Shown here in pieces: positions 15,707 to 61,427 of a DNA stretch of 64,000 bases. Below the pieces are notes generated by a model. That model ran no database searches. It worked only from the letters and a program-made list of their open reading frames with translations, and was not told the origin of the DNA. The position numbers and the translations under genes are program-made. Source of the DNA: a virus (Duplodnaviria > Caudoviricetes); the IMG/VR virus record IMGVR_UViG_2758568729_000001, positions 86,427-150,426 of that record; one strand, given 5' to 3'. Position 1 is the stretch's first letter. Each line of letters begins with the position of its first letter.

Positions 15707-16189
15707 TTACTGCTTCAGCAGGTCCCGCAGCTCGTCCTTCGACGACGCTGCGGCTGCCTCGTACGCGTAGCCGCGTGCCACGGCCGCTTCGATCCACACG
15801 GCGTGAGCGGCACGACCGTCCGGGAGGGCACCGTCGTCGGGCAGCTTCGCCCGCGCGGCGGCCCGGTCCGGGTCGTCGAACGGAACCGCCTGTTGGGCGG
15901 CGTCACCGGTCCCGTTCGGCTCGGCCACGGGGGCGCTGTCCGGGGCGTCGGCGGGAACCTCGTCCGGCTTGGCCTCGTCCGGCTTGGCCTCGGCCGGCGG
16001 GGCTGCCACCGGCGGGGCCGACCGGCCCACGCGTTCGATCATGCCCCGCCGCAGCAGGTGCCGGATCTCCGCCGGTTTCGCCTCGGCCGGCACGAACGCG
16101 TCCCGGTACACGTAGCTCAGCGCCGGACCGTGTGCCGTGATCGCTGTCACCACCACCACGGCGGCCGTCACCCGGTACTGGGCCGACAT
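15707..16189 (-). CDS. Hypothetical protein downstream of the capsid gene
   Basis: Coupled to the capsid stop; AKPDE repeats; short helical C-terminus. Confidence 0.7.
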   Translation of the reverse strand: MSAQYRVTAAVVVVTAITAHGPALSYVYRDAFVPAEAKPAEIRHLLRRGMIERVGRSAPPVAAPPAEAKPDEAKPDEVPADAPDSAPVAEPNGTGDAAQQAVPFDDPDRAAARAKLPDDGALPDGRAAHAVWIEAAVARGYAYEAAAASSKDELRDLLKQ

Positions 16190-17124
16190 CAGCTACCCTC
16201 CGTGTCCGTGATCCAGATGCCGGCGCCGGGCTCCTGCACGATCGGCACCGTCAGCCGGCGGGCCTGGATGTCGTGGGAGTCCGTCTTGTCGATCCGGATG
16301 ACCTTGACCTGCACGCCCCGGTCGGTCTGGGCGTAACCGGGGTCGACCTCGGTCTCGTCGGCCATCGAGCCGAGCTGCCGGGAGTCGAACAACAGGACGT
16401 CGTCCGTCGGCAGGTTCTGCTCCGTGGTCGTCAGGATCCTGTACGGGCCGACCTGGTCCAGCTCGCCCGTGTAGATCGGGTTGGTGGTCGTCTCCCGGCG
16501 GCGCAACTGGGCGATGATGTTGTCGGTCATCATCAGCGCCGCCTTGGTGTCGGACATCAGGAGCGTGTCCGGCACGTAGCCCTGGTTCAGGCCCTTGATC
16601 TTCGCTGCGGCCAGGGCCACGTCCCGCCACATGCGGGCGGCGTCGTCGTCGTCCCACGGGGCGATCGCCTCGTGCACGGCGGTTACCTGCGAGGCGACGA
16701 CCGACAGGGTGATCTCGTCGACCATGCTGATGACCGTGTTGACGGTTTTCAGCAGGGCGCGGTCGACGACCTCACCGCCGTACACGGAGCGCTTGATCTG
16801 CTCGTCGGTGATCGGCACCGCCTGGCCCCACTTGCGGACGGCGGCGAGGATCGCGGTTCCGACCCCGGGGGTGGCGCGCGGGTACTCGGCGCCGGGGGCG
16901 ATCGAGCGGGCGTCGCGGGCGTTCCGGAGCGGTTCCGACTGCTCGGCGAGGACCGCCCCGCCCTGGGAGCGGAGACGCCCGGTGAGGATCAGGTCGGACA
17001 CGAACCGCAGCTCGGCGAGGGTCCGCAGGCGGCGGCTGATCTGACGCGGCGACTGGAGCAGCCGGTGGGTGGTGATGAGGTTGTCCACCATCGTTGGCGG
17101 TTGTGCCGGATAGGTACCGGGCAT
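16189..17124 (-). CDS. Major capsid protein
   Basis: IAPGAEYP...KWG...ITDE...GYVPDTLLM...VPIVQEP.A; synteny; AAAGGA RBS. Confidence 0.9.
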   Translation of the reverse strand: MPGTYPAQPPTMVDNLITTHRLLQSPRQISRRLRTLAELRFVSDLILTGRLRSQGGAVLAEQSEPLRNARDARSIAPGAEYPRATPGVGTAILAAVRKWGQAVPITDEQIKRSVYGGEVVDRALLKTVNTVISMVDEITLSVVASQVTAVHEAIAPWDDDDAARMWRDVALAAAKIKGLNQGYVPDTLLMSDTKAALMMTDNIIAQLRRRETTTNPIYTGELDQVGPYRILTTTEQNLPTDDVLLFDSRQLGSMADETEVDPGYAQTDRGVQVKVIRIDKTDSHDIQARRLTVPIVQEPGAGIWITDTEGS

Positions 17125-19745: not shown

Positions 19746-21156
19746 CGCCTCCTGTTCCAGCAGCGGCGGGGATCGGAAGGGTGAGTTGTTCCGGTGGCGG
19801 CTGCTTACGGGGCCGGCGCGACGCCCGGCGGGCTACAACGGCGGGCGCCGGGGGCGAGGCGGGAGGATCCGGCTCGGGCTCGGGCTCAGGGGAGTTGTCG
19901 TCGGGCTCGGGAGCTGGTGGGGTCGGGGCCGGGGGTGGCTCGGTGCGCTCCGGAAGCCGGTACTCGCGCCGAACCCACGCCTCAAGAGCCGGATCAGCGG
20001 ACAGGGCACCCGACGACAGCAGCAGGTCCAGCGACTCGGCGGTCACCTCACGGCGTGACCCGACACCCGCGACGGTGACAACCGGCACTGGTTCGTCTTG
20101 GCCCCAGTTCCAGTCGACGATCCGGGCCGCGATCTGCCTGGTGGCGGTGTCGGCGATCTGCTCGCCGATCGTCTCCAACGCCAGGGTCCAGGAGTCGATG
20201 AACGCGGTGCCGAGCGCCCGGGATCCGCCGTTGCCGCCTTGACCGAGGTCGAGGTGTTGCATCAGGGCGCCTGCGGACATCTCCCGGTTGAGCCAGTCGA
20301 GGAACGCGAGAGTGTCCGGCACCGCACCAGACAGGCCGGCGATCCGGAGCGTGAACCCCGGTGGTGCTGCCGCCCCCGCCGTGTCCCCCGCGCGTGCGGC
20401 TGACGCCATTTCCTGCGCCTGACGCATCTGCTCCGGTGTCGGCACCGTGCCAGGCAGGGCTTCCATGACCGGCACGCCGGCACCCCAGCGGCGGTTGCTG
20501 ATCGCGTGGACGCGCTGCATTTCCCGCTTGATCAGCCATGGGGCGTAGGCGGGCCGAAGCAGGGACACACCCTGCCACGCGGAACCCTCCCGCTCGTGGC
20601 AGTACCACGCCAACCGGTCCGCCGGGATCTGCGGCGACCGTTGCTGGCTGGTCAAGATCTGGTCGACTCCGAGCAGGGCGCCGGTGCGTGGGTCGGCGTG
20701 GATCGCGCTGATCGACTGCGGCAACCGTTCGGCCAGGGTTACGAGCCGAGCCACGCCCGACGACACATCTGCAACGAGCTCGAACCCCGCGTGCCCGAAC
20801 GTCAGGCAGTTCAGGGCGGCCCGAAGGTGCTCGTTCCACGACACGCCGCGCCGGAACGCGCCAGTTTCGGTGTCCTGCCCTTTGACGTGCAGCCCGAGCC
20901 CGTCGGCGACCAACTGGACAACCTCGGGCCGGCAACCGGTCCCGTCGAGCTGCCATTGCGCACGCCGGAGTTGCAGCGTGTACCCGGCCAGGACCGCGGC
21001 CAGGCGGGGGTCCCGGCGCATCATCGAGTAGATCTCGACGCTGTTCGGGTACAGCAGGTCGGGGACGTGTTCGTACACGTCGGCGACGAGGGTGCCGTAC
21101 TGGTGTTCGTTGACCACACCGAGCGGGTGCAGCGGTGGTTTGATGGGGGCGGTCAT
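19732..21156 (-). CDS. Portal protein (Mu gp29/DUF935-like)
   Basis: YSMMRRDPRL...GVSLLRPAY.PW..K...GGSRALG; follows the terminase. Confidence 0.9.
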   Translation of the reverse strand: MTAPIKPPLHPLGVVNEHQYGTLVADVYEHVPDLLYPNSVEIYSMMRRDPRLAAVLAGYTLQLRRAQWQLDGTGCRPEVVQLVADGLGLHVKGQDTETGAFRRGVSWNEHLRAALNCLTFGHAGFELVADVSSGVARLVTLAERLPQSISAIHADPRTGALLGVDQILTSQQRSPQIPADRLAWYCHEREGSAWQGVSLLRPAYAPWLIKREMQRVHAISNRRWGAGVPVMEALPGTVPTPEQMRQAQEMASAARAGDTAGAAAPPGFTLRIAGLSGAVPDTLAFLDWLNREMSAGALMQHLDLGQGGNGGSRALGTAFIDSWTLALETIGEQIADTATRQIAARIVDWNWGQDEPVPVVTVAGVGSRREVTAESLDLLLSSGALSADPALEAWVRREYRLPERTEPPPAPTPPAPEPDDNSPEPEPEPDPPASPPAPAVVARRASRRPRKQPPPEQLTLPIPAAAGTGGGDHG

Positions 21157-21172
21157 GCCCACCCCCCGACCT

Positions 21173-22789
21173 CTACATCGGCACGGTGTTCCAGTCGACA
21201 ACCCCGGCGGGGTCCGGTGGCGGTGGCGGGCCCTTAGGCGTTGGGCCGGCGCGGGTGACCGAAACCCGGACCGCGTACGAAAAGGTGTCCACCTGGTCGT
21301 CGTTCTTGCTGTTCGGGAACGCGGCGTGTTCGTTGACCCAAACCGCTGTCCACCACGCCCCGGCGGGCAACCAGACCCGGCCGGCGGCGGCCCACGCGGA
21401 TGCGGGAAGCGCCCGGGACAGCTTGTCGGTTTCGGTGTCCAGGGGGGTGATCGACACCCCGGCGTTCGCCGCCTCCCGGACCAGGGTCATGCCGTACTGG
21501 CTGCGCTCCACGAACAGGGTGTCGAGCTTCCACCGCTGCACCAAAGGTTGGGCGTGGGTGAAGTGGTCGTTTTCCGAGATGTGCGCCCGCACCCGGTCCA
21601 GCAGGACCAGGTCCCGGTCAGGGGTACGCGCCCACACGGAGATGACGGTCCAGTCCGCCGACGCCTTCGTAGACGCGGCGAGGTCGACGGTCGCGAACCG
21701 CCAGCAGTCCTCAAGGGCGACCACCCGGGAGCCGAGGTGCAGGTACCCGTCGACACCGGGTGACCAGTACCGCCACCACAACCGCTTGAACAGGTTGCCC
21801 TCAGCGGGTGCCGGCCGCTGCTGGTACAGGGCGGCGAACACGTACGGGCCGACCGTCTTCGCGATCTGCTTCCAGTCCCGGTCACCCCGGGCCGAAACCA
21901 TGCCCTCACCGCGTTTACGGCCAAGGATGTCGTCGTCGGACTCGGCCACGGCCGGGATGGAGATGACCCGCCACCGGCCGCCAGAAGCCTTGTCGCCCTC
22001 GTTGGCCAAGATGCGGCGGATCGGCTCGTCTTCGTGCCAGCACGTTTGGATCCACGCGACCCGGGCCTTCGGGCCCATCCGGGGCACCAGCACCGACTGG
22101 TAGGTGGACATCGCTTTTTCGCGGATTTTCTCCGACTGGGCGTCGATCATGTTCCGGATCGGGTCATCCACGATGATCACGTCACCGGGCTTACCGGTGA
22201 TCGATCCGTTTACGCCGGCACAGTAGATCGACCCCTTGTGGCCGGCGATGTTCCACCGGCCGGCCGCCCGGGAGTCCTTCCGCAACCTCAGGCCGAGGTC
22301 GTAGGTGCCCTCGTCCCCGGACCACTGCTCCAGGGCGTTTTTGATGTCGCCGCCCCAACGGCGGGCCATCTCATCCGAGTAGGAAACGATCAGGATGCGC
22401 AGGTCGGGGTTGACGCAGGTGAGCAACCACAAGGGGAACCAGTAGGAGACCGTGGTCGACTTGCCCTCTTGCGGGGCCATCATCGCCGACAGCCGGTTCT
22501 CCCGACCGTCCGCGAGATCCACCAACGCGGAGTTGATCAGCTCAAGGGCGGGGGTACGGACTACGCCGTGCGGCTCCCCGTCCTCGTCCACGTAGTACGG
22601 GTCCAGCTCGGCGGCCATGTCCAACGGGGACGGCCACCGAGCCCGGTTCAGCTCACGTTTCCGTCGGGCCTCCGCCCGGCCCTGCTCCTCGCGCGCGGCC
22701 TTAAGCCGACGCACCTCCCGCAGTTTGACCAGCTTCAGTTGCTTCAAGCTCGGCGGTGAGCCGAGCGATTTCAGCATCGAGACTGTCAA
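21173..22789 (-). CDS. terL: Terminase large subunit
   Basis: Walker A PQEGKST, IIVDDPI, ALYQQRP, VDLA and nuclease NDDQVDT motifs. Confidence 0.95.
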   Translation of the reverse strand: MTVSMLKSLGSPPSLKQLKLVKLREVRRLKAAREEQGRAEARRKRELNRARWPSPLDMAAELDPYYVDEDGEPHGVVRTPALELINSALVDLADGRENRLSAMMAPQEGKSTTVSYWFPLWLLTCVNPDLRILIVSYSDEMARRWGGDIKNALEQWSGDEGTYDLGLRLRKDSRAAGRWNIAGHKGSIYCAGVNGSITGKPGDVIIVDDPIRNMIDAQSEKIREKAMSTYQSVLVPRMGPKARVAWIQTCWHEDEPIRRILANEGDKASGGRWRVISIPAVAESDDDILGRKRGEGMVSARGDRDWKQIAKTVGPYVFAALYQQRPAPAEGNLFKRLWWRYWSPGVDGYLHLGSRVVALEDCWRFATVDLAASTKASADWTVISVWARTPDRDLVLLDRVRAHISENDHFTHAQPLVQRWKLDTLFVERSQYGMTLVREAANAGVSITPLDTETDKLSRALPASAWAAAGRVWLPAGAWWTAVWVNEHAAFPNSKNDDQVDTFSYAVRVSVTRAGPTPKGPPPPPDPAGVVDWNTVPM

Positions 22790-35735: not shown

Positions 35736-36042
35736 TGGTTCCTCCAGTGGGTGTCGTACGGGAGTCGCAGCGGACGCAGACCCGCCCGCCGGCGAGGTGG
35801 TCAAGAGGGCTGGCCTGGCGGTGCACGATCTGCCCGCACAGGGCGCGGACCCCGTACCGGACCTCACCGGCCACAAGGTGCAGGGTCCGGCCGGCGTCCG
35901 TGACCGCGTAGGTCCACTCCGCCGATGGGCACTGCTGGTTGGGGTGCCCGCACGGTTCCGGTAGCTCAACCGGGGTGCCGGACGGCGACCGGACCCAGGA
36001 AAGGAAGTCCCGGGCCGCCCACACCTCGCACACGTCCATCAC
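35728..36042 (-). CDS. Hypothetical zinc-finger protein
   Basis: H...ALCG...CVRC. Confidence 0.6.
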   Translation of the reverse strand: MMDVCEVWAARDFLSWVRSPSGTPVELPEPCGHPNQQCPSAEWTYAVTDAGRTLHLVAGEVRYGVRALCGQIVHRQASPLDHLAGGRVCVRCDSRTTPTGGTNA

Positions 36043-37403
36043 ACGATCGCCAAATCAGCGAACCGGGCCAGGTGCAACTGAGCAGCCACGGTCACCGTGT
36101 CGGTAGGCCCGTTCCTGTGCTTAGCCACTATGAAATCCGCTTCACCGGCGCGAGCGGATTCCTTGTCGTAGTAGTCGTCCCGGTGGAGCAGGATCACCAC
36201 GTCAGCGTCCTGTTCGAGACTGCCCGACTCGCGAAGATCGCTCAGTTGTGGGCGCTTATCAGCCCGCTGCTCGGGGCCGCGGTTCAACTGGCAGACCGCG
36301 ATGACCGGACAGCCCACCTCCTTCGCAAGAAGCTTCAACCCACGAGACAGGTCGGAAACCTCCTGCTGCCGGGACTCGGTCCGCTGCGGCGACGACACGA
36401 GTTGGAGGTAGTCCACGACGATCATTCGCAGGTCGTGGCGCTGCTTCAACCGGCGGGCCTTCGACCGGATCTCCATCAGCGACGTCGCGGCGGTGTCGTC
36501 CACGAACAGCGGCGCCTCGGCGATGTCGCCCATGCACCGGGCCAGCTTCGTCCAGTCGTCGTCGGAGAGCTGCCCGTTGCGGAGTACATGGAGCGGCACC
36601 CGTGATTCGGCGGACAACAACCGGGTGATGATCTCGACCTTGGACATTTCGAGAGAGAAGATCCCGACCGTTTGCTTCGCCCGGATCGCAGCGTTCCGGG
36701 CGAAGTCGAGAGCGGCCGTCGATTTTCCGAGTCCGGGCCTGCCGGCGACAATGATGAGCTGACCAGGGTGGAACCCATTCAGCAACCGGTCTAGGTCAAT
36801 GAACCCGGTCGGCACCCCGGTCTGCAACGCGTCCTTGCTGCCAGCGGCTTCAATGTCGTCCAGCGTCGGTTGCAGCATCTCCGCCAGCGAGGCGAAATCG
36901 TCGTTGCCCTGACGGCCGGTGATGTCGTACACCGTCTGCTGGGCGAGGTCGACCATGTCGCCGAGGGTCTTCCCCGGCACACGGGTGGCGCTGTATCCGA
37001 GTTGGGTGATCCGGATTCCGGCTTCGATCATCTTCCGCTGGGTCGAGCACTCCGCCATGATCTTGGCGTAGTGGCCAACGTTCGCTGCACTCGGAACCCC
37101 GGCAATCAGGGTGTGTAGGTACGGGGCACCGCCGACCCGGATCAGGTCACCGGACTCGCGCAACGCGTGCGCCACGGTCACGGTGTCCGGTGTGCCGCCC
37201 TTCCCGTACAGGTTGATGATCGAGTCGAAGATGGTTCCGTGGCGGGGAAAGTAGAAGTCGCCTGATTTGATCATCTGGCCGACGGCGTCGATCGCATCCT
37301 GTGACAGGAGCATCGCCCCGAGGAGCGCCTGTTCCGCCTCAAGATCGTGCGGCGGGGTCCGGTCGTCCTGCCCCGCCGCCGGGGTCTCAATGGTGGCGGT
37401 CAC
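36039..37403 (-). CDS. dnaB: Replicative DNA helicase
   Basis: PPHDLEAEQ, GRPGLGKS, FSLEM, VDYLQL, SDLRESGSLEQDAD, KHRNGPT. Confidence 0.97.
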   Translation of the reverse strand: MTATIETPAAGQDDRTPPHDLEAEQALLGAMLLSQDAIDAVGQMIKSGDFYFPRHGTIFDSIINLYGKGGTPDTVTVAHALRESGDLIRVGGAPYLHTLIAGVPSAANVGHYAKIMAECSTQRKMIEAGIRITQLGYSATRVPGKTLGDMVDLAQQTVYDITGRQGNDDFASLAEMLQPTLDDIEAAGSKDALQTGVPTGFIDLDRLLNGFHPGQLIIVAGRPGLGKSTAALDFARNAAIRAKQTVGIFSLEMSKVEIITRLLSAESRVPLHVLRNGQLSDDDWTKLARCMGDIAEAPLFVDDTAATSLMEIRSKARRLKQRHDLRMIVVDYLQLVSSPQRTESRQQEVSDLSRGLKLLAKEVGCPVIAVCQLNRGPEQRADKRPQLSDLRESGSLEQDADVVILLHRDDYYDKESARAGEADFIVAKHRNGPTDTVTVAAQLHLARFADLAIV

Positions 37404-37855
37404 GGAAGAACCTCGCCCTCAACCTCGTCGCCGGTCGGCCACGCCGGGCCGGGGGTGATCTCACGCAACTGGTCGAGCGGCGCGGTCTGGCCGGACCGCT
37501 GGGCCAGGTGCTTGATCACCATCGCCAGTGCCTCGCGGGCCGCCGCACCACCACGCTCGTTTCGGATCTGCCGGTCCATGTCGTCGGTCTCGAACCGGCC
37601 TGGCAAGGCTCGAACCTCGTGTTGCCCGGTCACCCGCCGCTGGTCGGTCCGGATCTGCCTGACGATCCGACGCACGTGGGCGGGCATGATCCGATCGGTG
37701 TTCTCCCGGTAGTACAGCGACACCGCGAGCTTGGCGTCCTCGAACTCGATGTCTTCCAGGTCCTGGTGCCAGGCCAGCACATCGGTGTCACCGATGTGGC
37801 GGTAGTCCCTGGTAGCGGCCAAGCCGAGAAGGATGGCGACTTCGGACCGGTTCAT
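37400..37855 (-). CDS. Putative helicase loader/inhibitor (G39P-like)
   Basis: D.R..G.TDVLAW...IMPAHV; between the initiator and dnaB. Confidence 0.65.
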   Translation of the reverse strand: MNRSEVAILLGLAATRDYRHIGDTDVLAWHQDLEDIEFEDAKLAVSLYYRENTDRIMPAHVRRIVRQIRTDQRRVTGQHEVRALPGRFETDDMDRQIRNERGGAAAREALAMVIKHLAQRSGQTAPLDQLREITPGPAWPTGDEVEGEVLP

Positions 37856-38862
37856 GCCGCACCTCGATCAAGTTCGGCGTACTTCGCGGCGAGCGCCACC
37901 GCGTCGGACATGCGGGCATCGGCAGGGGACCGGGAGGGGTTGCTGCCCGCCAGACCACCGGATTGGCGGCCCTGCCACACCCGATCCGACTGAACCCGCT
38001 GCGCCGAAAGCCGATGGAGTTGCATATCGAGGCTCACCCAGCCGCCAACAGCCATCTCCTTCGCCGCCTCAATCAGCTTCTCGGGCGGAACGTTCTCCTT
38101 CTCGATGAGCCGCTTGGCGTCGCGGGAGAATTTCCCGATGGCCCCGCTGGTGGGTGGGTCGCCGCCTGCGTCGGTGATGGCGTCGATCCACGCGGCGGTG
38201 ACGTCCCGGGCGGTGACCTTGTCCGGGACAGCGACGTCCGTGCCGGGTGCGGTCGGGAACAGCGCTTCGGCTGTGGTGGCTTTGGCCGCGGTCCGCTTCG
38301 ACGGCTTGGTGGTCTTCGGCTCGGCTGTGGTCGCCGGCGGCGGAGAAGAAGGAACTTCCGTAGGAAGTTCGGTCGGGTCGGGTCGGGTCGGGGGGACCGT
38401 GACTGCGGGTGCGACATCGGTGTGACTGTCGGCGTGAGTCACGTCAGCGTCACGCCGTGACGCACCCCCCGCTTGGGTGTTTTCGCCCTGATTCTGCGTT
38501 TTCGCCTTCGCTCGATCCCGCGCCCGCTGCTGCCGGGCCGCCGCCGCAGCGCGCTCCTTGAGAACCTGCTCCCTGGACGGTTGATGATCGGTCCACTGGT
38601 GAAACCGCCATCCCTCCTCGCCGTCACGCGTGACGCGCTCCCACAGACCAGACCGCTCCAACCTCGGGGTCAGGGCCTCACGGAGGCCCGGGGCGAGGTA
38701 GTCGACAACGTCATCAGGGACCCATCCGTCGGTGAGGTCATCCGACGCCCACGACCCAGCCACAGCCCACAGACCGATCGCCGCGAGCCCCTCCAGATCG
38801 AGGCCGGTACGGATGCGCTTACGGTGCTTGTGGAACCCGTCGTCCATCCGGAACCACGTCAC
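37852..38862 (-). CDS. Phage replication initiator
   Basis: MTWFRMDDGF..H.K, GLW...W....TDGWVP, FHQWTDHQPS and TRPDPT linker. Confidence 0.85.
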   Translation of the reverse strand: MTWFRMDDGFHKHRKRIRTGLDLEGLAAIGLWAVAGSWASDDLTDGWVPDDVVDYLAPGLREALTPRLERSGLWERVTRDGEEGWRFHQWTDHQPSREQVLKERAAAAARQQRARDRAKAKTQNQGENTQAGGASRRDADVTHADSHTDVAPAVTVPPTRPDPTELPTEVPSSPPPATTAEPKTTKPSKRTAAKATTAEALFPTAPGTDVAVPDKVTARDVTAAWIDAITDAGGDPPTSGAIGKFSRDAKRLIEKENVPPEKLIEAAKEMAVGGWVSLDMQLHRLSAQRVQSDRVWQGRQSGGLAGSNPSRSPADARMSDAVALAAKYAELDRGAA

Positions 38863-39215
38863 AGGACTCGCGCCCCCTTCCGGGTGTCGCGGGAACGGGA
38901 GACAGCCGGGACCGGTGGCAGGTTCATCGGGCACAGCCAGCACCCGTCACGCCTCGGCTTCGGCTGGTACTTCAGCGGGGCCCGTGAGTTGAGCCGGGTC
39001 AGCCCGGCGGCCCACGCCACCCCGGCGACGACGCACGAGTCCCACGGGTTCAGAGCCGCAGTCTCCGCTCGGCACTGCTCCAGCACCGGGCAGTCCGACA
39101 GGCAGATGTGCCGGGCCAGCGGGTACAGGCTGCGGGTCGTCCACACATGGCTGTTCCGCTGGCACACGGCGTGCTGGCGCCACCCGGCGTCAAGGTCAAT
39201 GGTTGGTGCGGTCAC
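38859..39215 (-). CDS. Divergent WhiB-family protein
   Basis: WRQHAVC...ARHICLSDCPVLEQC...VVAG. Confidence 0.7.
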   Translation of the reverse strand: MTAPTIDLDAGWRQHAVCQRNSHVWTTRSLYPLARHICLSDCPVLEQCRAETAALNPWDSCVVAGVAWAAGLTRLNSRAPLKYQPKPRRDGCWLCPMNLPPVPAVSRSRDTRKGARVL

Positions 39216-39628
39216 AGTGCGTCTCCGGTGGCGATCGTGGTGATCCGGCGGCGCCGGTACCGGGCGGGAACCCGAGTCGGGACGGCGTACAGGCGGACCG
39301 GGGGAGCGATCGGCCCTTCGACGCGGCACACCTCGCACCCTTCGGTGCGGGTCTGGTGGCGGCGGCGGGCGGTGTCGGTCCCGCAGGGCAACACATCATT
39401 CGGCCCGTACCGGGGGCCGCGAGGGGGAAGGAGTCCGTGGTCGCGGGCGTACGCGACGGCGGCCGGGCCGGAGGGCACCCGCAGGAGCGCGAACACCCTG
39501 CTGAGTTCCTGCGTGACGGCACCGGTGGTGCGGTTGGTTTTGAGGCCGATGGCGGCCCGGGTGAGCCCGTCGGCGAGGAGGTCGAGCAGGGTGAGTTGGT
39601 GGTCGGTGAGTTGCGGAATCTCAGGCAT
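39212..39628 (-). CDS. LuxR-type HTH protein with a Cys/His module
   Basis: LTDHQLTLLDLLADGLTRAAIG...AVAYARDHGLL; CGT...H....CEVC. Confidence 0.75.
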   Translation of the reverse strand: MPEIPQLTDHQLTLLDLLADGLTRAAIGLKTNRTTGAVTQELSRVFALLRVPSGPAAVAYARDHGLLPPRGPRYGPNDVLPCGTDTARRRHQTRTEGCEVCRVEGPIAPPVRLYAVPTRVPARYRRRRITTIATGDAL

Positions 39629-40265
39629 CGTTGGCCGCCTTCCGAGATCCCTTGCGCTTCCGCATCACCGTCACCAGGCGGCTAGCGTTCGCGCCGCGCC
39701 GGTCGGTACCCCACGGCCGTGACGGCACCTCGCCCTCATGCCAGTAGGACAGGAACCGGCGGCGGGCGTTCGCCAGGTGGGTGGCGTAGCAGGACAGGTC
39801 ACCGAGCGCAGCCCGTGCGAGCGCATGGTCATCGAACGCGGCCAGAGCGCCAATGACCTCCCGCTGCCGTTCCGTAAGGGTGGGGAGAATCTGAGCGAGA
39901 GCCAGCCGGTCAACGATGTGGTTCTCCGGCGACGGGGTGACCCGGGTGACGTCGGTCCAGTAGGTGACGAAGTTCGGGCCTGTGCCGCTTTCGCCCCACC
40001 CCTCGTCGTTCCGGTATGCGGCGCCTCGGTAGCTGAGGGTCTTCCGGTTCTCCGTCCACAGCGAGTCCTGCGCGGCCTGGAACAGCTTGTGCTCCGGGAT
40101 CCAGTGTTCGGCCTCGTACAGGCGCTCTGCGGCGGCACCGAACGCTTCGGCGTACCGGTCGTCGTAGTCGCCGGCCATCGCCCGGGTTGTTGCCGCAGCG
40201 GACCGGGCGACGCGTTGCAGGTCGGCGAGGGTGTAGCCCCATCGGAGTTCGGTGTCGGTGTTCAT
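39621..40265 (-). CDS. Sigma-factor-like protein (region 4-like)
   Basis: SPENHIVDRLALAQILPTLTERQREVI...HLANARRR. Confidence 0.6.
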   Translation of the reverse strand: MNTDTELRWGYTLADLQRVARSAAATTRAMAGDYDDRYAEAFGAAAERLYEAEHWIPEHKLFQAAQDSLWTENRKTLSYRGAAYRNDEGWGESGTGPNFVTYWTDVTRVTPSPENHIVDRLALAQILPTLTERQREVIGALAAFDDHALARAALGDLSCYATHLANARRRFLSYWHEGEVPSRPWGTDRRGANASRLVTVMRKRKGSRKAANDA

Positions 40266-41428
40266 GCTGCCTCTCCGAAGAGGTCGAGTTGCTGGTGCTG
40301 GATGACCACCGGAGATGTGGCCGGCATCGGGTTGGTTGGCTGAGCCGGTTCGGTGTGCTCCGTGGCGGCCCAGTCCCATCCGCTCTGGGTGAAGGACTCA
40401 CCCGGCAGGTCGGCGAGCTGCGGGTGGTGGTCGTCGTAGACCTGCTTGCTGGTCTTGCCGAGAAGCAGGGAGTCCGCCACGCCGATCCGGGGGATCAGGT
40501 TGCGGGGGATGGTGTCGAGCCGGATCGGCCCGGTGGTGAGCCCACCCCGTTGGGCAAGGTGCGCGGCGTACACGGTGCACCGCAAGCGAGCGACGGCCGC
40601 GGTGAGCGGGTCCAGCTCCACCCCGTCAACCGAGGCGACCACGCGGGTGAGGGCATCACCGGGGGCGGACACGATGCCGCCCGTGGCGACCAACCCGGCC
40701 TTGGCCTGGCGGGGGCGAAGGGTGCCGGTGGTGTACCACTCCCACAGGTAGTCCATGGCCCGGACCATGAAGTGCCCGGTGCCGGCGGTCGGGTCGACGG
40801 TGCGAATCAGCCGGTCGGCGCGGAAGGCGACGCACGCGGGGACCATCGTCCGGTCGAGGATGAAATCCGCCACCCACCACGGGGTTTGCGCCAACGCGTG
40901 CTCTTTGCGGCGGTCGTCGGTCACGGCCTGAAGCAGGTCCCCGATGATCCAACCGCTGATCGACGGCGGCCCGTCGATCACCTCGTAGGCGAGGGACGGT
41001 GCGTCACCGGCCCACCAATCGACCAGGTCTTGGATCGCTGCATCGGACGGGGTGCCGGCGTGCAGGTCCGGGTTGTACCGGGGGTGCATGAGCCACTGGG
41101 TAGCGGGATGCACGGTCAACCCAGCCATGGCCTGCAACAGTGCGACGCTCGGCGTCGGGTTCGGCATGTACCAGCCGGGCATTCCCTTCAGCCCGTCACG
41201 TAGCCACACGTTAATGAGCCCGTGGTCTTCAGCCCAGGCGGTGACAGCGGACAGGTACACCCACGCCCCGGCGATGCGGGTGCGGCGGGCGTGGTCGGTG
41301 TATTCGGTGCTGGCGGGCGGGATGGTGCCGGCGAGGCGGTCGACGTGCTTTCGGAGGGCTTTGACGAGCGTGTGGGTGTATTTGGTGTTGTCCACCGGGT
41401 TGCTCGTTGGGTGAGTCTCGGTCGTCAT
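40262..41428 (-). CDS. Truncated PglX (BREX-2)-like adenine methyltransferase homolog without the catalytic motif
   Basis: AWV......AEDHGLI, GDLLQ...RKEHALAQTPWWVADFILDRT, DPTAGTGHF, GVELDP, ADSLL; no NPPY/F. Confidence 0.75.
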   Translation of the reverse strand: MTTETHPTSNPVDNTKYTHTLVKALRKHVDRLAGTIPPASTEYTDHARRTRIAGAWVYLSAVTAWAEDHGLINVWLRDGLKGMPGWYMPNPTPSVALLQAMAGLTVHPATQWLMHPRYNPDLHAGTPSDAAIQDLVDWWAGDAPSLAYEVIDGPPSISGWIIGDLLQAVTDDRRKEHALAQTPWWVADFILDRTMVPACVAFRADRLIRTVDPTAGTGHFMVRAMDYLWEWYTTGTLRPRQAKAGLVATGGIVSAPGDALTRVVASVDGVELDPLTAAVARLRCTVYAAHLAQRGGLTTGPIRLDTIPRNLIPRIGVADSLLLGKTSKQVYDDHHPQLADLPGESFTQSGWDWAATEHTEPAQPTNPMPATSPVVIQHQQLDLFGEAA

Positions 41429-41508
41429 GGCAGTCACCTCCGTCGATGTTTTGGTGGGAATGGTGGAGCGCGGCCCGCCCCGTGCCGGACCGCGCCCCGT
41501 CGACCGAA

Positions 41509-43174: not shown

Positions 43175-43849
43175 TCAGGCGACCGACGACAACCGGCGCG
43201 TCGACATCCGTACCGGCTGGATCGCCCCCACGAACCGCTTACCGATCCGCACGTGAGCCATCTCGTCCGGACCGGTGAACGTCCACTCCGCCTCGCCGCC
43301 GCGTTGACGCACGTCACCGAACCGGCCCAACCGGGCCCCGTTGAACGCGATCTTGCTGACCGGGCGCGCCAGGATCGGGGCGTGGAGGATCGGCCGCGGG
43401 TCCGGGAAGTCGACCACGACCCCGTTCGCCACCATTGACAGGCCGAACCCGCCGCCGGTGTCGATGCTCCGGGAGATCCGCAGCCGCCCGTCAGGGCCGT
43501 CGCCGATGTAGTCGAGCGCAACCGGAACGCTGCCCTGCTTGGTGCCGAGCTTGAACTTCTTGGTCACCTCGATGGCGGTGGCCAGGTCGATCAGGATCTT
43601 CCACGGCTCGTCGTCCCCACCGAAGTCGGGCCACAGCCCGTCCTGCGCGTCGGCGTCGCTGTCAGGGTCGTCGTCGGGGTGCCACGACGAGATACCCGCG
43701 TAGACCCGGTCGGTGGCGGCAACGTGAAGCATCTCGCCGTCCCACCGGATCTGGACGCAGTTCAGGTCGGGGACCTCTTTGTTGTCGGCGGCGAACCCGA
43801 CGACGTCGTTGATGAGGCCGATCAGGTCACTGGTGCGAAGCGTGATCAT
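43175..43849 (-). CDS. Short, divergent sliding-clamp (DnaN)-like protein
   Basis: FAA....PDLNCVQI....LHVAATDR...FPD.R...FNG..L..F...GAIQPVR. Confidence 0.65.
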   Translation of the reverse strand: MITLRTSDLIGLINDVVGFAADNKEVPDLNCVQIRWDGEMLHVAATDRVYAGISSWHPDDDPDSDADAQDGLWPDFGGDDEPWKILIDLATAIEVTKKFKLGTKQGSVPVALDYIGDGPDGRLRISRSIDTGGGFGLSMVANGVVVDFPDPRPILHAPILARPVSKIAFNGARLGRFGDVRQRGGEAEWTFTGPDEMAHVRIGKRFVGAIQPVRMSTRRLSSVA

Positions 43850-43884: not shown

Positions 43885-44361
43885 TCAAGAGGCCCGCTCG
43901 TTCGCGGGGACGTAGAACGGCATCAACTCGCGCCGCTTGATGTCGGCCGCCTCGGCAGCGGTCTGCTCCGAGTCGTAGGTGCCGCACATGTAGGTCTTGC
44001 CGCGAAACTTCACGCGTGCGATCCAGCGCCCCGACCGGGTTGGGTGAACGCCCCTGTACTTCGACTTCCCGCGGCCCGCGACGTTCTGACTGGACCCACT
44101 CGGATTGACCACCCGTAGGTTGGACCGCCGGTTGTCGAGCCGGTTGCCGCTGCGGTGATCGCCGATCATCCCGTCGCCGGCCGCGAGTCCGAGCACCCAC
44201 CGGTGGACGACTTGGACGCGCCCGCAGTCGAACATCTGGGCGTATCCGTGCGACCCGATCGACAGTCGCCGACTGGCGAGACGGAGGTAGTCGTCCGAGT
44301 CGAGAAGTACCGGCACCGGGCCATCCTTTGTGGAGGCGTTCACCTCAACCCACGCCCGCAT
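43885..44361 (-). CDS. HNH endonuclease with an AP2 DNA-binding domain
   Basis: VHRWVLG...DHRSGNRLDNRRSNLR...SKYRGV...WIARV. Confidence 0.88.
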   Translation of the reverse strand: MRAWVEVNASTKDGPVPVLLDSDDYLRLASRRLSIGSHGYAQMFDCGRVQVVHRWVLGLAAGDGMIGDHRSGNRLDNRRSNLRVVNPSGSSQNVAGRGKSKYRGVHPTRSGRWIARVKFRGKTYMCGTYDSEQTAAEAADIKRRELMPFYVPANERAS

Positions 44362-44858
44362 CAGAAGGGCGGGTTTTCGTCGAAGTTCCCGCCTGAGCCT
44401 CCCTGCGATTCCTGGTGCGCCCACGGGTCGTTCATGCTGCCGCCCTGGGCCGGGGCAGCGCCCCGGGCCTGTCCGCCACCGCCGCCACCGGAGCGGGACA
44501 TCTTCTGGACGCTCGCCGTGGCGTACCGCAGCGACGGGCCGATCTCGTCGACCTCCAGTTCGATGACGGTGCGCTTCTCGCCCTCGCGGGTTTCGTAGCT
44601 GCGCTGCTTGAGTCGGCCCGAGACGATGACCCGGTCACCGCGCTTCAGTGACTCGGCGACGTGCTCGGCCGGCTGGTTCCAGACCTTGCACTGCATGAAC
44701 AGGGGCTCGCCGTCCTTCCACTCGTTCGTGGTCCGGTCCATGAACCGGGGCGTGGATGCGACCCGGAAGTTCGCGACCGCCGCGCCGTTCGGGGTGAATT
44801 TGAGCTCCGGGTCATCGGTCAGGTTGCCGATGATCGTGATGGTGGTGTCTCCAGCCAT
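44361..44858 (-). CDS. ssb: Single-stranded DNA-binding protein
   Basis: [21 protein letters not shown]...C-terminal DENPPF. Confidence 0.97.
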
Positions 44859-44898: not shown

Positions 44899-46047
44899 TC
44901 AGCGGGTCACGCGGATCGGCATGATCAGGTACCGGTAGTGCGGGTCCGGCTCCTCGCCGGCAGACGGGGCCCCCGTCATCACGGCCGGTTTGAACGCGTC
45001 CACGAACCCGAAATGCGCCACCGACTGGTTCAGGGCCTGCAACCCCTCCACCAGGTAGTGCGGGTTGAACCCGATGGTGAGCGGGGCGCCGGTGAATCTG
45101 GTGTCCATGGCCTCGGATGCGCGGGCGTCCTCGGTACCGCCGGCCTCCACCACGAGCCCGTCCAAGCTGAAGGTCAGGAGGACTGGGGTGGTGCGTTCGG
45201 CGACCAACGCCACCCGCTGCACAACCTCGATCAGCGAGGCGACCGGCACCTGCGCATGGGCCGCGTACTCCTTCGGGAACAGGGACCGGACCGGCGGGTA
45301 GTTCTGCCCGTCGAGGAGCCGGGAGGTGAACTCGTGCCGGGGGCCGGCGATCCCCGCCACCCCCTGACCGGGGCTGGTCTGGTCCAGGGACAGGGTGACG
45401 GTGCCGCCGGCCGACGCGAAACCTTTGGCCATGCCGGCGAGCACCTTCGCCGGGATGAGGGCAGCGAGCCCGTCCGGGAGGTCGGCGGCCGGCTCCCACG
45501 GCACCTCGGCCACGGCGAGCCGGTACCGGTCGGTGGCGAGCATCGCCATGGTGTTGCCGTTCAGCTCGACCCGAACACCGGTCATCATCGGCAGGGTGTC
45601 GTCCCGGCCGGCGGCCACCGCGACCTGGGCGACCAGCCGGCCGAACGCGGCGGCGTCGATCGTCCCGGCCGGGTTCGGAATGACCGGCAGCGCCGGGTAG
45701 TCCTCCACCGGCATCGTCGGCAGGGTGAACCGGGCGCTACCGCACACCATCTCCAGGTGGGTGCCGACAGCGGTCAGCTCAACCGGTTTCGCCGGCAACG
45801 CTTTGGTGATCTCGGCGAGGAGCTTGCCCGACACCAGGACCGCGCCGGGCTGCTCGTCGGTGCGGGCGATGGTGTCGACCTGGCTGCGGGTGGACACCTC
45901 GTAGTCGAACCCGGTCACTGTGAGGGTGCCGTGCTCGATGCGGAGAAGGAGGCCGGACAGGACCGGCACCGACGGGCGGGCCGGGAGTTGCTTCGCCGCG
46001 GTGCCGACCGCTTCGGCGAGCACCTTCGGGTCGACGGTGGCCTTCAC
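44899..46047 (-). CDS. dnaN: DNA polymerase III beta sliding clamp
   Basis: [35 protein letters not shown]. Confidence 0.96.
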
Positions 46048-59269: not shown

Positions 59270-59487
59270 CGGAGCACCACCGGGAGGGAGGCGAGGGCGA
59301 CCGCAGCGAGGCAGAGCAGGATGGTCAGGGCGAACCAGACCGGCCCCTTGCCGACCTCATGCCACCACGACGGCTCGGTGGTCCCGTGCGCGTCGGACGG
59401 CGCCTCGGCCGTGATCGGCTCAACCGGAGCCTTCGTGCCGCCGACCGGGGCCCGCAGCGCCCGGAGCTTCGTGTACGCCGGGCTCAT
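59266..59487 (-). CDS. Small membrane protein
   Basis: C-terminal WFALTILLCLAAVALASL. Confidence 0.6.
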   Translation of the reverse strand: MSPAYTKLRALRAPVGGTKAPVEPITAEAPSDAHGTTEPSWWHEVGKGPVWFALTILLCLAAVALASLPVVLR

Positions 59488-61427
59488 GCCGACACCTCGC
59501 CGTGTAGCGCAGCCCGCAACCGCGAACCGATCCACTCGCCAACCTGCGGCGAAACGGCGTTCCCGAACCCGTCCGTTTGGTCCCGAGCGGAACCCCACAC
59601 CGTGAAGCTGCCCTGGTAGCCGGGGAAGTCGACATCGAACCCGCACCCGCGACCGATCTCGTGCGGGCCAAGCATGCGGAAATAGCAGTCCTCCAACGCC
59701 AGGCCAGCAAGCGCGGCCCGCCATGCGGCGGTCACGTTCGAGGGGGACTGGTTCTGCTCGTACCAGCCGGAGAACAACACCGCCTGGCTGGCGGCCGACG
59801 CGACGACCGTTCCGAGCGGATCATTGACCGGGTGGGCGCGGTACTGTGCCTCATCTAGCGCACCGTTGTTCTTGATGGTCCCGGCCGCAGTCAGTAGACC
59901 GGGGACCTGCTCGGACGTCACGGTCGGCATCGGCTCGGCGCCCACGGTCGGCACGGTGTGCTTGCGGAACGGCACGATCCCTGCGGACAGCAGGCCGAGG
60001 GTTTCCGAGCCCGCCTGCGTCGGCAGCGGCTCATCCATACCGCGCGGGATGCCCTGGTAGTTGTTGACCGCGGCGAGCAGCACCGCCTTCTCGTGGGTCG
60101 AGGTCACCGTGTCCATCGGCCGACTGAGGTGCTGGCCGTCCCCGTTGTGCCGGTGGGCGGCGAACACCTGGCCCGTGAGCGCGACCGGCGGCGCGAGTAG
60201 GCCGGTCGTGGCGGTCGCGGTCTGCGTCCACAGCGGCTGGCCCAGGTCGCGGGTCCGGCACTCAGACCCGGGGCGCTCGAACGTGTTCCCGGCGGCGACC
60301 ATAATCGCGCCGGTGGACAGCAGCGCGGTCTCCTGCTGGCTGGTCTGGGTGGACATCGGCTGCCACGGGTGCCGCTCCGCACCACGCACCGCCTTGGCGG
60401 GCATGAGGATCGCGGGAAACTCCGCAAACCGCTGCCGGCAACGCTCGGCACGGGCCAGCGTTGCAGCCGCGAGCGGCCCCGTCGTGCCATCCCTGTGCTT
60501 CTTGACCGGCTTGTCGCCGATGCGAGTGCCGAGGTTGCTGAGATCAAGCGCGTCGAGCGAAGGGCTCATCGGCGGGACGACCTCGCCGCGGCAGCGTGGG
60601 CACCGATAGTTGTACTGCTGGCCGTAGCGCACCAACCCGGTGGGCGGGATGCCGGTCTTCCATGACCACACCGCGGGGACGATCTCGCTGCACCGGCCAC
60701 ACCACGACGCCGGTCGGTGCTCCAGGTCGGGAGCGGGCAGGTTCTTCTTCCAGAACGCGCCGTAGTACCGGTCCCGCGACTGCGACACCCCGAAGAACTG
60801 GGAGTTCAGGTACAGCGCCTGGTGCCGGTAGTCCAGGTTCTCGAACTGCTTGAGCCACCACCGGTACGTCGATCCGTCGCCGATCTTCGGCCGCCCGGGG
60901 ATGGCGGGCCCCCACGATGTCAGCTCGGTCGTGCACTCGACGAGGATCATGCGTGGGTGGTGCTGGGCGGCGTAGTGCAGCACGCAGTTCGCGGTCGCCC
61001 GGTCCCGTTCGCTGCGCGTCACCCGCGCGTCGAAGTCCGGGTCATCCAGGTCGAACAGGCTCATCCGCTGCGCGTACGCCTTCTGCGTGTTCGCGCCTGA
61101 GTGATTGGTACAACTCACGCCGGCCACGAGGATGTCTGCGGCCGGGAGGTCGCGGGCCGAGTGGTAGTCGGACGACTCGCGGTCGACCAGGTCGGCGATC
61201 CAGTGCTCGGCGTGCGGGTGGTTGGCCTCGTGGACCTTGACCTTGTAGGCGTTGTGGTTCGCCGCCATGATCGTCGTGAATCCGGCCGCCTCGATGCCAC
61301 GGGTCAGGCCGCCGAACCCGGAGAACAGGTCGACCGCCACCAGGTCATCGTGGGCAAACCGGCGACGGCGAGCGGCGGGCCGGTGCTCTGCGACGCGCCG
61401 AGTGTCCCGACGCTTCGTGGTGGACAT
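59484..61427 (-). CDS. DNA (cytosine-5)-methyltransferase
   Basis: DLFSGFGG (motif I), GVSC (IV), QSRDR (VIII), FGNAVSP (X). Confidence 0.9.
   Translation of the reverse strand: MSTTKRRDTRRVAEHRPAARRRRFAHDDLVAVDLFSGFGGLTRGIEAAGFTTIMAANHNAYKVKVHEANHPHAEHWIADLVDRESSDYHSARDLPAADILVAGVSCTNHSGANTQKAYAQRMSLFDLDDPDFDARVTRSERDRATANCVLHYAAQHHPRMILVECTTELTSWGPAIPGRPKIGDGSTYRWWLKQFENLDYRHQALYLNSQFFGVSQSRDRYYGAFWKKNLPAPDLEHRPASWCGRCSEIVPAVWSWKTGIPPTGLVRYGQQYNYRCPRCRGEVVPPMSPSLDALDLSNLGTRIGDKPVKKHRDGTTGPLAAATLARAERCRQRFAEFPAILMPAKAVRGAERHPWQPMSTQTSQQETALLSTGAIMVAAGNTFERPGSECRTRDLGQPLWTQTATATTGLLAPPVALTGQVFAAHRHNGDGQHLSRPMDTVTSTHEKAVLLAAVNNYQGIPRGMDEPLPTQAGSETLGLLSAGIVPFRKHTVPTVGAEPMPTVTSEQVPGLLTAAGTIKNNGALDEAQYRAHPVNDPLGTVVASAASQAVLFSGWYEQNQSPSNVTAAWRAALAGLALEDCYFRMLGPHEIGRGCGFDVDFPGYQGSFTVWGSARDQTDGFGNAVSPQVGEWIGSRLRAALHGEVSA

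Follow-up and report, generated by a model that had tools for sequence, protein, structure and literature searches.

The known anti-BREX factors include T7 Ocr, a DNA mimic that binds PglX/BrxX, the SAM lyase of phage T3 and OrbA of ICP1. For BREX type 2, the actinobacterial Pgl system, no inhibitor was found in literature searches. Host DNA that has just been replicated also carries unmethylated sites, which BREX tolerates. In eukaryotes, DNMT3L is a catalytically dead paralog of DNMT3A/B, and DNMT1-PCNA exemplifies the clamp tethering of maintenance methylation. PglX of S. coelicolor carries its NPPY motif at residues 378-381 and interacts genetically with PglZ (PMC4365076). The N- and C-terminal domains of BrxX have been proposed to contact BrxZ and BrxC (PMC11842806), and the N-terminal bundle is similar to the dimerisation domain of M.EcoKI (PMC12839542).

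P0002, a prophage-encoded protein, is homologous to BREX-2 PglX over the N-terminal third of the latter; the catalytic and DNA-recognition parts are gone.

Gene and Domain Organization

The analysed window is a stretch of 64,000 nt (positions 86,427 to 150,426 of the IMG/VR record IMGVR_UViG_2758568729_000001), in which the gene and its domains are placed as follows:

40262..41428, minus strand: coding sequence, including the stop, of P0002, a PglX-N-like protein of 388 aa; in-frame GC3 0.87; BREX-2 PglX HMM matches
41437..41441, minus strand: ribosome-binding site GGAGG, 8 nt upstream of the P0002 ATG, read directly
40964..41401, minus strand: N-terminal helical domain (aa ~10-155), homolog of the PglX N-terminal domain, HsdM-N-like; the HMM match begins at PglX profile position 53, the AF2 model shows helices alone, and the N-terminal regions of PglX/BrxX, PacII M and type I HsdM chains align with it
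40394..40963, minus strand: gamma-class N6-adenine methyltransferase fold, of which only the N-terminal half is present (aa ~156-345), with motif X and strands beta1-beta3; AF2 model, CamA match and alignment A3 with PglX
40853..40888, minus strand: motif X, QTPWWVADFILD (aa 181-192); family alignment and alignment A3
40769..40795, minus strand: motif I, DPTAGTGHF (aa 212-220); D212, G216, T217 and G218 invariant in the family
40607..40624, minus strand: motif II, GVELDP (aa 269-274); family alignment and alignment A3
40463..40477, minus strand: motif III, ADSLL (aa 318-322); D319 invariant in the 101-sequence alignment A1

The reading frame opens with an ATG at 41428 and closes with a TGA at 40262-40264. 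The sequence-only reading had described an intact, RBS-led ORF at these coordinates; this holds, with the addition that the ORF is on the minus strand. All the motifs it had listed are present and in the same order: AWV...AEDHGLI, YNP...PSDAA...WW, GDLLQ...QTPWWVADFILDRT (motif X), DPTAGTGHF, GVELDP and ADSLL. It was also right that NPPY (motif IV) and a target-recognition domain are absent, the fold ending after motif III; in PglX, in contrast, NPPY follows motif III about 45-60 residues on. Having lost NPPY, the remainder of the fold and the domain for DNA recognition, P0002 cannot methylate DNA. Scanning for promoters and terminators between 38800 and 43300 gave none above chance.

The AF2 model (pLDDT 91, pTM 0.89) contains three strands only (210-212, 267-271 and 314-317). 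A seven-stranded Rossmann-like sheet with motifs I-VIII is not present: the model, a confident one, has beta1-beta3 only. Residues 157-326 superimpose on CamA (Z 13.9, rmsd 2.8), and the N-terminal half of the model on PacII M and PglX (Z 12-14).

Homology to BREX-2 PglX

The likeness to the N-terminal third of BREX-2 PglX, which the sequence-only reading had proposed, is real. The NCBIfam profile NF033451 matches P0002 with E=8.4e-29 (aa 46-334 on profile positions 53-328 of 1185) and the PADLOC PglX model PDLC02529 with E=1e-29. BREX-2 PglX models, at profile positions 53-331 of about 1185, are its only significant family matches: Pfam gave no match, and PHROGs a marginal methyltransferase match only. 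The score on NF033451 is 100 bits, below the curated cut-off of 400 bits, which true PglX fragments of the same length exceed (471-483 bits). A word-index search for longer relatives returned one weak match only, and an exhaustive HMMER search was needed. In the latter, the family's own representatives and fragments score 150-490 bits; the next hits, led by proteins of about 1190 aa that match at their residues about 55-325, score at most 142 bits. Five of the full-length hits were scored on the BREX-2 PglX model, and all exceed its cut-off (1244-1583 bits). The best matches outside the family are BREX-2 PglX and not unrelated methyltransferases.

In alignment A3, P0002 is 27-29% identical to full-length PglX, with motifs X, I, II and III collinear. 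The N-terminal helical domain and these four motifs are shared with BREX-2 PglX (NF033451; S. coelicolor SCO6627), and both families occur in Actinomycetota. P0002, however, has only one third of the length and lacks, besides NPPY, motifs V-VIII and the roughly 800 residues that in PglX form the target-recognition and C-terminal domains. Its family also has an insertion of its own, about 15 residues long, between motifs I and II (WYTTG...TGG) and, unlike PglX, is unlinked to pglW/Y/Z and carried by phages and conjugative elements.

Family Conservation and Age

It had been suggested that homologs be checked for a common truncation and for purifying selection. At least 231 homologs keep the short form of 340-400 aa and are thus not full-length proteins, and dN/dS is 0.21 against the closest homolog (77-78% identical). 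For distant pairs, dN/dS is 0.37-0.69, values that are probably inflated because synonymous sites are constrained at a GC3 near 90%. The residues of motifs I, II and III are conserved family-wide, including the acidic residue of motif II and D319. A pseudogene is rejected by the number of same-length homologs, the low dN/dS and the confident AF2 fold.

The family is old, separate and divergent from PglX; in the FastTree phylogeny it has a long root branch, and a basal clade retains NPPY and bears the terminal motif. Of the earlier idea of a captured defence subunit, the PglX homology and the truncation therefore stand, but not a recent capture. A recent capture from the present host is likewise rejected: the host has neither a PglX above cut-off nor PglZ, and the family is a long separate branch.

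Ten copies were found on IMG/VR viral contigs. A tblastn search with P0002 found no family member in 50,697 deposited phage genomes, so no cultured phage gives indirect phenotypic evidence. The N-terminus of PglX, searched by tblastn in the 50,697 phage records, found only methylases/type IIG enzymes: haloarchaeal ones, one from Clostridioides and one from an uncultured faecal phage. The PLSDB plasmids contain nothing closely related to the family; they yielded only PglX and another protein, the 439-aa 'N-6 DNA methylase' that linear plasmids of Streptomyces encode (L040:7881-9200). This enzyme resembles P0002 in being PglX-like, in lacking a recognition domain and in its location on an actinobacterial mobile element, and it is 34% identical over aa 66-322; however, it retains NPPY and motifs V-VI, hence a complete catalytic core, and has no clamp-like tail. 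The P0002 family is undescribed, mobile-element-borne and derived from BREX-2 PglX; with hundreds of members and no Pfam entry, it deserves a name.

C-Terminal Candidate Clamp-Binding Motif

Beyond the methyltransferase fragment, the protein ends in a flexible extension:

40265..40393, minus strand: disordered C-terminal tail rich in Pro, Ala and Thr (aa 346-388); its last 40 residues have pLDDT 53-69, and homologs differ in its length and sequence
40277..40291, minus strand: QLDLF (aa 380-384), a candidate motif for binding the beta sliding clamp, with GEAA and the stop after it; consensus clamp peptide, enriched in the family

This C-terminal QLDLF had not been mentioned in the sequence-only reading. 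It lies within the last 20 residues (pLDDT 53-61) and is the sole terminal motif of its kind among the about 90 ORFs of the window. The host DnaE1 carries QYDLFG. Among clamp peptides, QLDLF is the consensus and the strongest binder (PMC11139829); some family members have the variant QPDLF, identical to the experimentally validated clamp-binding motif at the C-terminus of MuC of phage Mu (PMC12867686). A QL[SD]LF-type terminal peptide on a disordered tail is also the arrangement in the proteins with clamp-binding motifs (Pol II, Pol IV, Pol III alpha, Hda, phage Mu MuC, IS transposases). In contrast to these, the body of P0002 is a methyltransferase fragment and not a known clamp client, and its binding is predicted from sequence.

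Among 120 homologs, 39 strict and 19 loose terminal Qxx[LM][FWL] motifs were counted, against 0.02 expected, with none elsewhere in these proteins; the motif is kept while the linker varies. It terminates the phage-borne copies at 11 of 13 loci and none of the conjugative-element copies (0 of 13), a split that is largely that of one clade and so essentially one evolutionary event. On the FastTree phylogeny with its long root branch, the parsimonious reading, short of proof, is that the motif is ancestral in the family. A derivation of the tail from the PglX C-terminus was considered and rejected: a QL[DS]LF-type motif occurs in none of the ~55 full-length (at least 1100 aa) top hits scanned, five of them confirmed as BREX-2 PglX, and most end in a basic, WRPP...RGRK-like sequence. 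The tail of P0002 is likely a beta-clamp binder, and this previously overlooked feature shifts the likely mechanism to action at replication forks.

Genomic Setting and Host

P0002 is located in the early/replication block of the prophage, between genes for a clamp, an HNH protein, a replication initiator and DnaB; the terminase, portal and capsid genes are downstream of this block. Two neighbours are relevant here:

39621..40265, minus strand: downstream 214-aa gene, whose start overlaps the P0002 stop (ATGA), with no family assignment; in a Micromonospora prophage (L033), the corresponding position is taken by a homolog with 38% identity
44899..46047, minus strand: DnaN sliding clamp of the phage (382 aa), which shares 66% identity with DnaN of the host and could serve as a docking partner of the P0002 tail

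A second clamp-like protein is encoded nearby. The genes after P0002 have faint LuxR-type HTH and WhiB-like matches, both below the Pfam thresholds, and a 647-aa C5 methylase of the prophage is encoded at 59484-61427. The downstream gene is unrelated to methyltransferases, as had been noted, and the upstream one encodes a 505-aa membrane protein, also without methyltransferase motifs. A split methyltransferase can thus be discarded, as the overlapping downstream gene and the upstream gene lack motifs IV-VIII and the neighbours differ between loci.

Other phage copies of the family are also found in phage-like early regions, and those of conjugative elements adjoin genes for ArdC-N, DUF4192, DprA, ComM and NlpC/M23. 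The flanking genes are mostly not conserved across loci, as expected of an accessory cassette. The family is a mobile single-gene cassette in the early regions of phages and in the leading, establishment regions of conjugative elements, beside ArdC-N, a setting in which anti-defence genes are expected.

As had been observed, there is no pglW/Y/Z gene in the window; moreover, the complete 8.74-Mb host genome has no PglZ domain and no PglX above cut-off, so the lysogen offers no target in its own cell. A PglZ domain is likewise absent from the gene tables inspected for ten homolog loci. In the taxonomic family of the host, 16 of 81 genomes, including that of a congener, have a BREX-2 PglX above cut-off.

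Possible Function

The best reading of P0002, to which we assign a probability of roughly 0.4, is a dominant-negative role against BREX-2. The protein keeps the N-terminal helical domain of PglX and the first, SAM-binding half of the methyltransferase fold, and in the phage copies the flexible tail with QLDLF would anchor it to the sliding clamps of DNA undergoing replication. Expressed early in lytic growth, it would sit at the phage replication forks as a PglX look-alike. It could there occupy the partners normally engaged by the PglX N-terminal region (PglZ, PglY, PglW), or it could pair with the host PglX through the HsdM-N-like domain. In both cases, a BREX-2 complex would be kept from assembling or from acting on nascent phage DNA. 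We infer from these features that P0002 may bind the clamp, SAM and BREX partners and inhibit BREX. The fuller proposition, that actinomycete phages neutralise BREX-2/Pgl with a degenerate PglX copy parked on the sliding clamp at replication forks, is tentative and on balance doubtful. The strict conservation of SAM-binding residues, which a simple partner decoy does not need, counts against a decoy, and a family this old and only distantly identical to PglX may have gained a function unrelated to BREX.

Ocr, T3 SAM lyase and OrbA are, like P0002, encoded by early genes of mobile elements, and target and outcome would be the same if the dominant-negative reading is right. P0002 has, however, no sequence or fold relation to them, and it comes from the defence subunit itself instead of acting by DNA mimicry or SAM destruction. 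DNMT3L is also methyltransferase-derived with catalysis lost, and P0002 would act like it, if at all, by protein-protein contacts; but DNMT3L is of an unrelated class (C5, eukaryotic) and has lost the SAM-binding residues that the P0002 family keeps.

A rather unlikely alternative is a clamp-directed phage factor unrelated to BREX, with the PglX-like body only as an exapted scaffold. Such a factor could compete with host polymerases for the sliding clamp (shut-off of host replication or clamp capture) or couple, for instance, late transcription to replication, for which MuC is the precedent (PMC12867686). A perfect consensus motif, conserved in a disordered segment despite the variable linker, would be explained in this way, as would the phage's own DnaN and second clamp-like protein and the position among replication genes, followed by the faint LuxR-type HTH/WhiB-like genes. 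Yet conservation is higher in the 340-aa body, which has kept its SAM-binding motifs, than in the tail, and most phages carrying the family have no clamp gene in the 10-kb flanks. The whole conjugative-element clade, moreover, keeps the body without the motif, which implies a clamp-independent function of the body. A role of P0002 in binding SAM or SAH, as a cofactor sponge against SAM-dependent defences (BREX, type I/III restriction-modification) or a sensor of SAM status, appears improbable. Motif I (D212, G216-G218), the acidic residue of motif II and D319 of motif III are indeed conserved throughout the family and, according to a preprint, BREX defence needs SAM and phage T3 escapes it through SAM cleavage (bioRxiv 10.1101/2023.02.27.530186). 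Stoichiometric binding, by our own reasoning, is nevertheless a poor means of exhausting a metabolite that is abundant; the pocket lacks one half (motif IV, strand beta4), and the PglX-specific N-terminal domain and the clamp tail would be left unexplained.

Equally small chances are given to a non-catalytic partner in the manner of DNMT3L, which would stimulate or target a full methyltransferase (the phage C5 methylase or a host enzyme), possibly at forks, resulting in self-protective methylation and not in inhibition. The C5 methylase of the prophage, the methylases encoded within 10 kb of two other family carriers and the eukaryotic parallel of DNMT1-PCNA fit such a role. These neighbouring methylases, however, belong to unrelated families (C5 vs. 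N6_N4) and are absent at other carrier loci, and there is no indication that they would take a gamma-class PglX fragment as a partner. Finally, the missing catalytic half could mark a functionless, decaying methyltransferase remnant, but this is hardly credible in view of the hundreds of same-length homologs, the dN/dS of 0.21, the confident predicted fold, the RBS, the translational coupling to the next gene and the conserved terminal motif.

If the fuller proposition of a PglX copy parked on the clamp is true, P0002 would be the first inhibitor of BREX type 2, the first BREX decoy derived from a defence subunit and the first clamp-tethered anti-defence protein. BREX-2 would then survey unmethylated DNA at or just behind the replisome, and the clade of the conjugative elements would represent a version that works without the clamp, on single-stranded DNA as it enters. 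Even apart from BREX, no sliding-clamp client of this type, a methyltransferase fragment with a consensus clamp motif, would have been reported before. A dominant-negative fragment would mark the part of PglX that makes the essential contacts, and a real clamp tether would point to the replication fork as the place of BREX action. With a protein as small as P0002, both ideas are directly testable.

The P0002 gene and its prophage setting

The window holds a tailed-phage genome and, because it lies inside a complete actinobacterial genome (8.24-8.31 Mb of a single 8.74-Mb contig), is a prophage. Nearly all genes are closely packed on the minus strand, and the gene of P0002, the 388-aa PglX-like protein under study, is positioned within the early/replication block.

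Features of the window
16189-17124, major capsid (structural gene)
17613-19745, prohead protease (structural gene)
19732-21162, portal (structural gene)
21173-22789, large terminase (structural gene)
36039-37403, DnaB (early/replication block)
37852-38943, replication initiator (early/replication block)
40262-41428, minus, P0002 coding sequence, open frame with ATG at 41428
41437-41441, minus, ribosome-binding site GGAGG upstream of the P0002 ATG
43175-43849, minus, probably clamp-like 224-aa protein, matching phrog_12598 ("RusA-like resolvase")
43885-44361, HNH (early/replication block)
44361-44858, SSB, from DNA matches to annotated SSB genes
44899-46047, minus, DnaN sliding clamp (early/replication block)
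59484-61427, minus, C5 cytosine DNA methylase of 647 aa (PF00145, E = 6e-20)

The ORF has a GC3 of 0.87, coding-type for DNA of 69% G+C, and its stop codon and the start codon of the following gene overlap (ATGA). The coordinates proposed in the sequence-only reading stand, with the strand being minus and not plus; all the motifs it listed are found in the same order, and NPPY is indeed absent from the product. Flanking genes are not conserved in the family, save for a 214-aa downstream gene common to one Micromonospora prophage. Two further proteins are encoded downstream of this gene (38859-39628, minus): one of 138 aa that faintly matches a LuxR-type HTH (GerE, E = 0.25), and one of 118 aa, rich in Cys, whose match to WhiB is likewise faint (E = 0.014). 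Both genes come before the replication initiator, and the block may be one operon. The C5 methylase, which contains a long extra region, probably provides self-protective methylation against restriction.

P0002 corresponds to the front end of BREX-2 PglX

Pfam gave no match for P0002. In PADLOC and NCBIfam, the best model was BREX-2 PglX (E = 1e-29 and 8e-29), with residues 41-334 matching profile positions 53-331 of ~1185; the next best was a type IIG enzyme (4e-19). An exhaustive profile search with the family against 1.8 billion representatives returned an upper tier (150-490 bits) of the family's own members and fragments, and a lower tier (at most 142 bits) headed by ~1190-aa proteins matched at residues ~55-325. 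All five full-length lower-tier proteins checked are bona fide BREX-2 PglX (1244-1583 bits), and five short ones are PglX fragments. Direct alignment with full-length PglX shows motifs X (QTPxxV), I (DPxxGxGH), II (GV[ED]L[DN]P) and III (GDSLL) to be collinear. After motif III, a variable insert in PglX leads on to YxVVGNPPY (NPPY at 378-381 in S. coelicolor PglX, PMC4365076), while P0002 ends in a Pro/Ala-rich tail.

The AlphaFold2 model, built from a 101-sequence alignment (pLDDT 91, pTM 0.89), has a helical N-terminal domain, just three beta strands and a disordered stretch over the last 40 residues. Its structural matches are PacII M (Z 14), CamA (Z 13.9, rmsd 2.8 across model residues 157-326), PglX/BrxX (Z ~12, more than 310 residues aligned) and, further, MmeI, DrdV and type I HsdM. 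HMM and structure searches thus agree on the homology to the N-terminal part of BREX-2 PglX that had been suggested from motifs. Consisting of just the PglX N-terminal domain and the SAM-binding half of the methyltransferase fold, P0002 cannot function as a DNA methyltransferase. It is clearly descended from PglX, but by score, catalytic motif, domains and linkage it is not a BREX-2 PglX.

The truncation is old, since full-length PglX is merely 27-29% identical to P0002. A word-index search found 231 relatives of 303-403 aa, 44-78% identical, in Micromonospora, Streptosporangium, Spongiactinospora, Glycomyces, Phytohabitans, Actinomadura and many metagenomes; species-representative genomes added Plantactinospora, Virgisporangium, Rugosimonospora, Dactylosporangium, Sphaerisporangium, Streptomyces and Wenjunlia. 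In the ESM Atlas the family forms a cluster without a name, with 92 members. Among the positions that vary little or not at all are D212, P213 and G216-H219 of motif I, G269/D273 and D319, and ~15 family-specific residues (WYTTG...TGG) are conserved between motifs I and II. Two of the checks proposed with the sequence-only reading came out in its favor: homologs share the short length, and dN/dS against the closest DNA homolog is 0.21 (Nei-Gojobori), indicating purifying selection.

A clamp-type motif at the C-terminus

Overlooked in that reading, the C-terminus of P0002 reads ...HQQLDLFGEAA. The strict motif Q[LVMF][DSGNT]L[FW] is found in the last 20 residues of 39 of the 120 homologs (exactly QLDLF in 29), against a chance expectation of 0.02 matches per set (last 60 residues shuffled), and nowhere else in these proteins. 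Looser forms (QPDLF, QPSLF, QDALF, QLNLL, etc.) occur in 19 more. The motif is mostly located 3-6 residues from the C-terminus, behind a linker variable in length and sequence. The bacterial beta-clamp-binding consensus is QL[SD]LF, with QLDLF the strongest-binding peptide, and C-terminal tails are a common place for such motifs (review PMC11139829); in MuC of phage Mu, QPDLF has been validated as a C-terminal clamp motif (PMC12867686). Host DnaE1 has QYDLFG. After the motif, many homologs end in G/D-x-(x)-A-A (GEAA, GQVAA, GAAA, DGIAA); such a hydrophobic-Ala-Ala end is similar to the ssrA type of ClpXP degron, so the protein may have a short lifetime.

Among the predicted proteins of the window, only P0002 carries a C-terminal clamp-type motif; an N-terminal QLTLL is present in one further ORF. 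The full phage DnaN is 66% identical to host DnaN at 4.24 Mb; the clamp alignment excludes the unpublished genome G019, on which no conclusion depends. Neither a polymerase nor a clamp loader was seen in the window. The 224-aa protein weakly resembles domain II of phage DnaN (26% over 109 aa, E = 8e-4, ATDR motif in common). Its resolvase label is probably wrong, since the true clamp matches the same PHROG, and the protein might offer the QLDLF tail another place to dock.

Phage and conjugative copies

Loci were sorted by marker genes in their 10-kb flanks. Thirteen distinct loci are phage-like (YqaJ/RecT, HNH, endonuclease VII, DnaB, SSB, RusA, clamp, terminase/portal), and 11 of them have the tail motif (9 strict, 2 loose), as do 8 of 10 IMG/VR viral contigs. 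Another 13 share a different neighborhood (DUF4192, NlpC/P60 or M23 peptidase, A24 peptidase, ComM, DprA, sometimes ArdC-N), characteristic of conjugative or integrative elements from actinobacteria, and none of these has the motif. Their C-termini read ...LPGAAFPLxDFxWPxEP..., in some followed by an Arg-rich stretch. The DFxWPP/xEP tails with an Arg-rich end (P0037, P0045, P0046, P0065, P0067 and P0075, of the conjugative-element clade) loosely recall the WRPPxxxRGRK end of full-length PglX; this could be chance, or a PglX tail retained or mimicked. Because the conjugative copies form one clade, the contrast in motif represents essentially one evolutionary event, not 13.

In a FastTree phylogeny rooted on PglX, a basal clade (protein P0130; loci L049, L050, L069) retains both NPPY and motif V, and its proteins already have QL[DS]LF at the end. 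Most parsimoniously, a PglX-like gene was cut after motif V and acquired the clamp tail; a second cut then shifted the truncation point ahead of motif IV, and the gene spread among phages, with one lineage passing to conjugative elements and losing its tail.

Putative function

In this family, mobile elements carry a PglX front end that is stable, conserved and catalytically inactive, and the phage copies have a linear motif of the clamp type in addition; a dead remnant is very improbable. We tentatively favor a clamp-tethered dominant-negative inhibitor of BREX-2 (probability about 0.4). The rationale for a decoy comes from the literature: BrxX is methylation-competent only with BrxB, BrxC and BrxZ, the proposed contacts of its N- and C-terminal domains (PMC11842806), the N-terminal bundle is like the M.EcoKI dimerisation domain (PMC12839542), and PglX without PglZ is toxic (PMC4365076). 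BREX blocks phage DNA replication (PMC11842806), and a PglX look-alike on the clamp would be placed exactly where nascent unmethylated DNA arises. The same tail would also suit a clamp function independent of BREX, which we consider rather unlikely. What a pure decoy accounts for least well is the conservation of the SAM-binding residues. SAM is perhaps needed for the PglX-like conformation recognized by partners; that SAM binding itself is the function seems improbable, and a DNMT3L-like helper of another methylase no less so.

P0002 resembles none of the known anti-BREX proteins; the papers searched on anti-BREX, PglX and Pgl counter-defence yielded Ocr, a SAM lyase and a haloarchaeal virion protein, and no truncated PglX. 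In the lysogen genome, neither a PglZ domain nor a PglX above cut-off is present; there are only weak methyltransferase-core matches from a pair of long ORFs, at 5.69 and 5.70 Mb. These ORFs (L007 and L008, G000:C1:5683828-5704779; 1493 and 1033 aa, ~17 kb apart) match the PglX core at E 1e-12 to 1e-13 in this PglZ-free genome and may be a type IIG/ISP or BREX-related island. BREX-2 PglX above cut-off is present in 16 of 81 sampled genomes of the host's taxonomic family, among them a congener. Members of the short family occur sporadically there (2/81), as expected for mobile cargo. The other positive genome, G064, also has a BREX-2 PglX above cut-off; its family copy is on a 4-kb contig.

The linear plasmid of Streptomyces sp. 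NBC_01216 encodes another, distinct PglX-like protein, 439 aa long (L040:7881-9200), and similar genes are present on ~17 Streptomyces plasmids. Its catalytic core is complete (motifs X, I-VI including NPPY), but a target-recognition domain and a clamp-like tail are absent. Domain-truncated PglX relatives may thus be a recurring theme on actinobacterial mobile elements.
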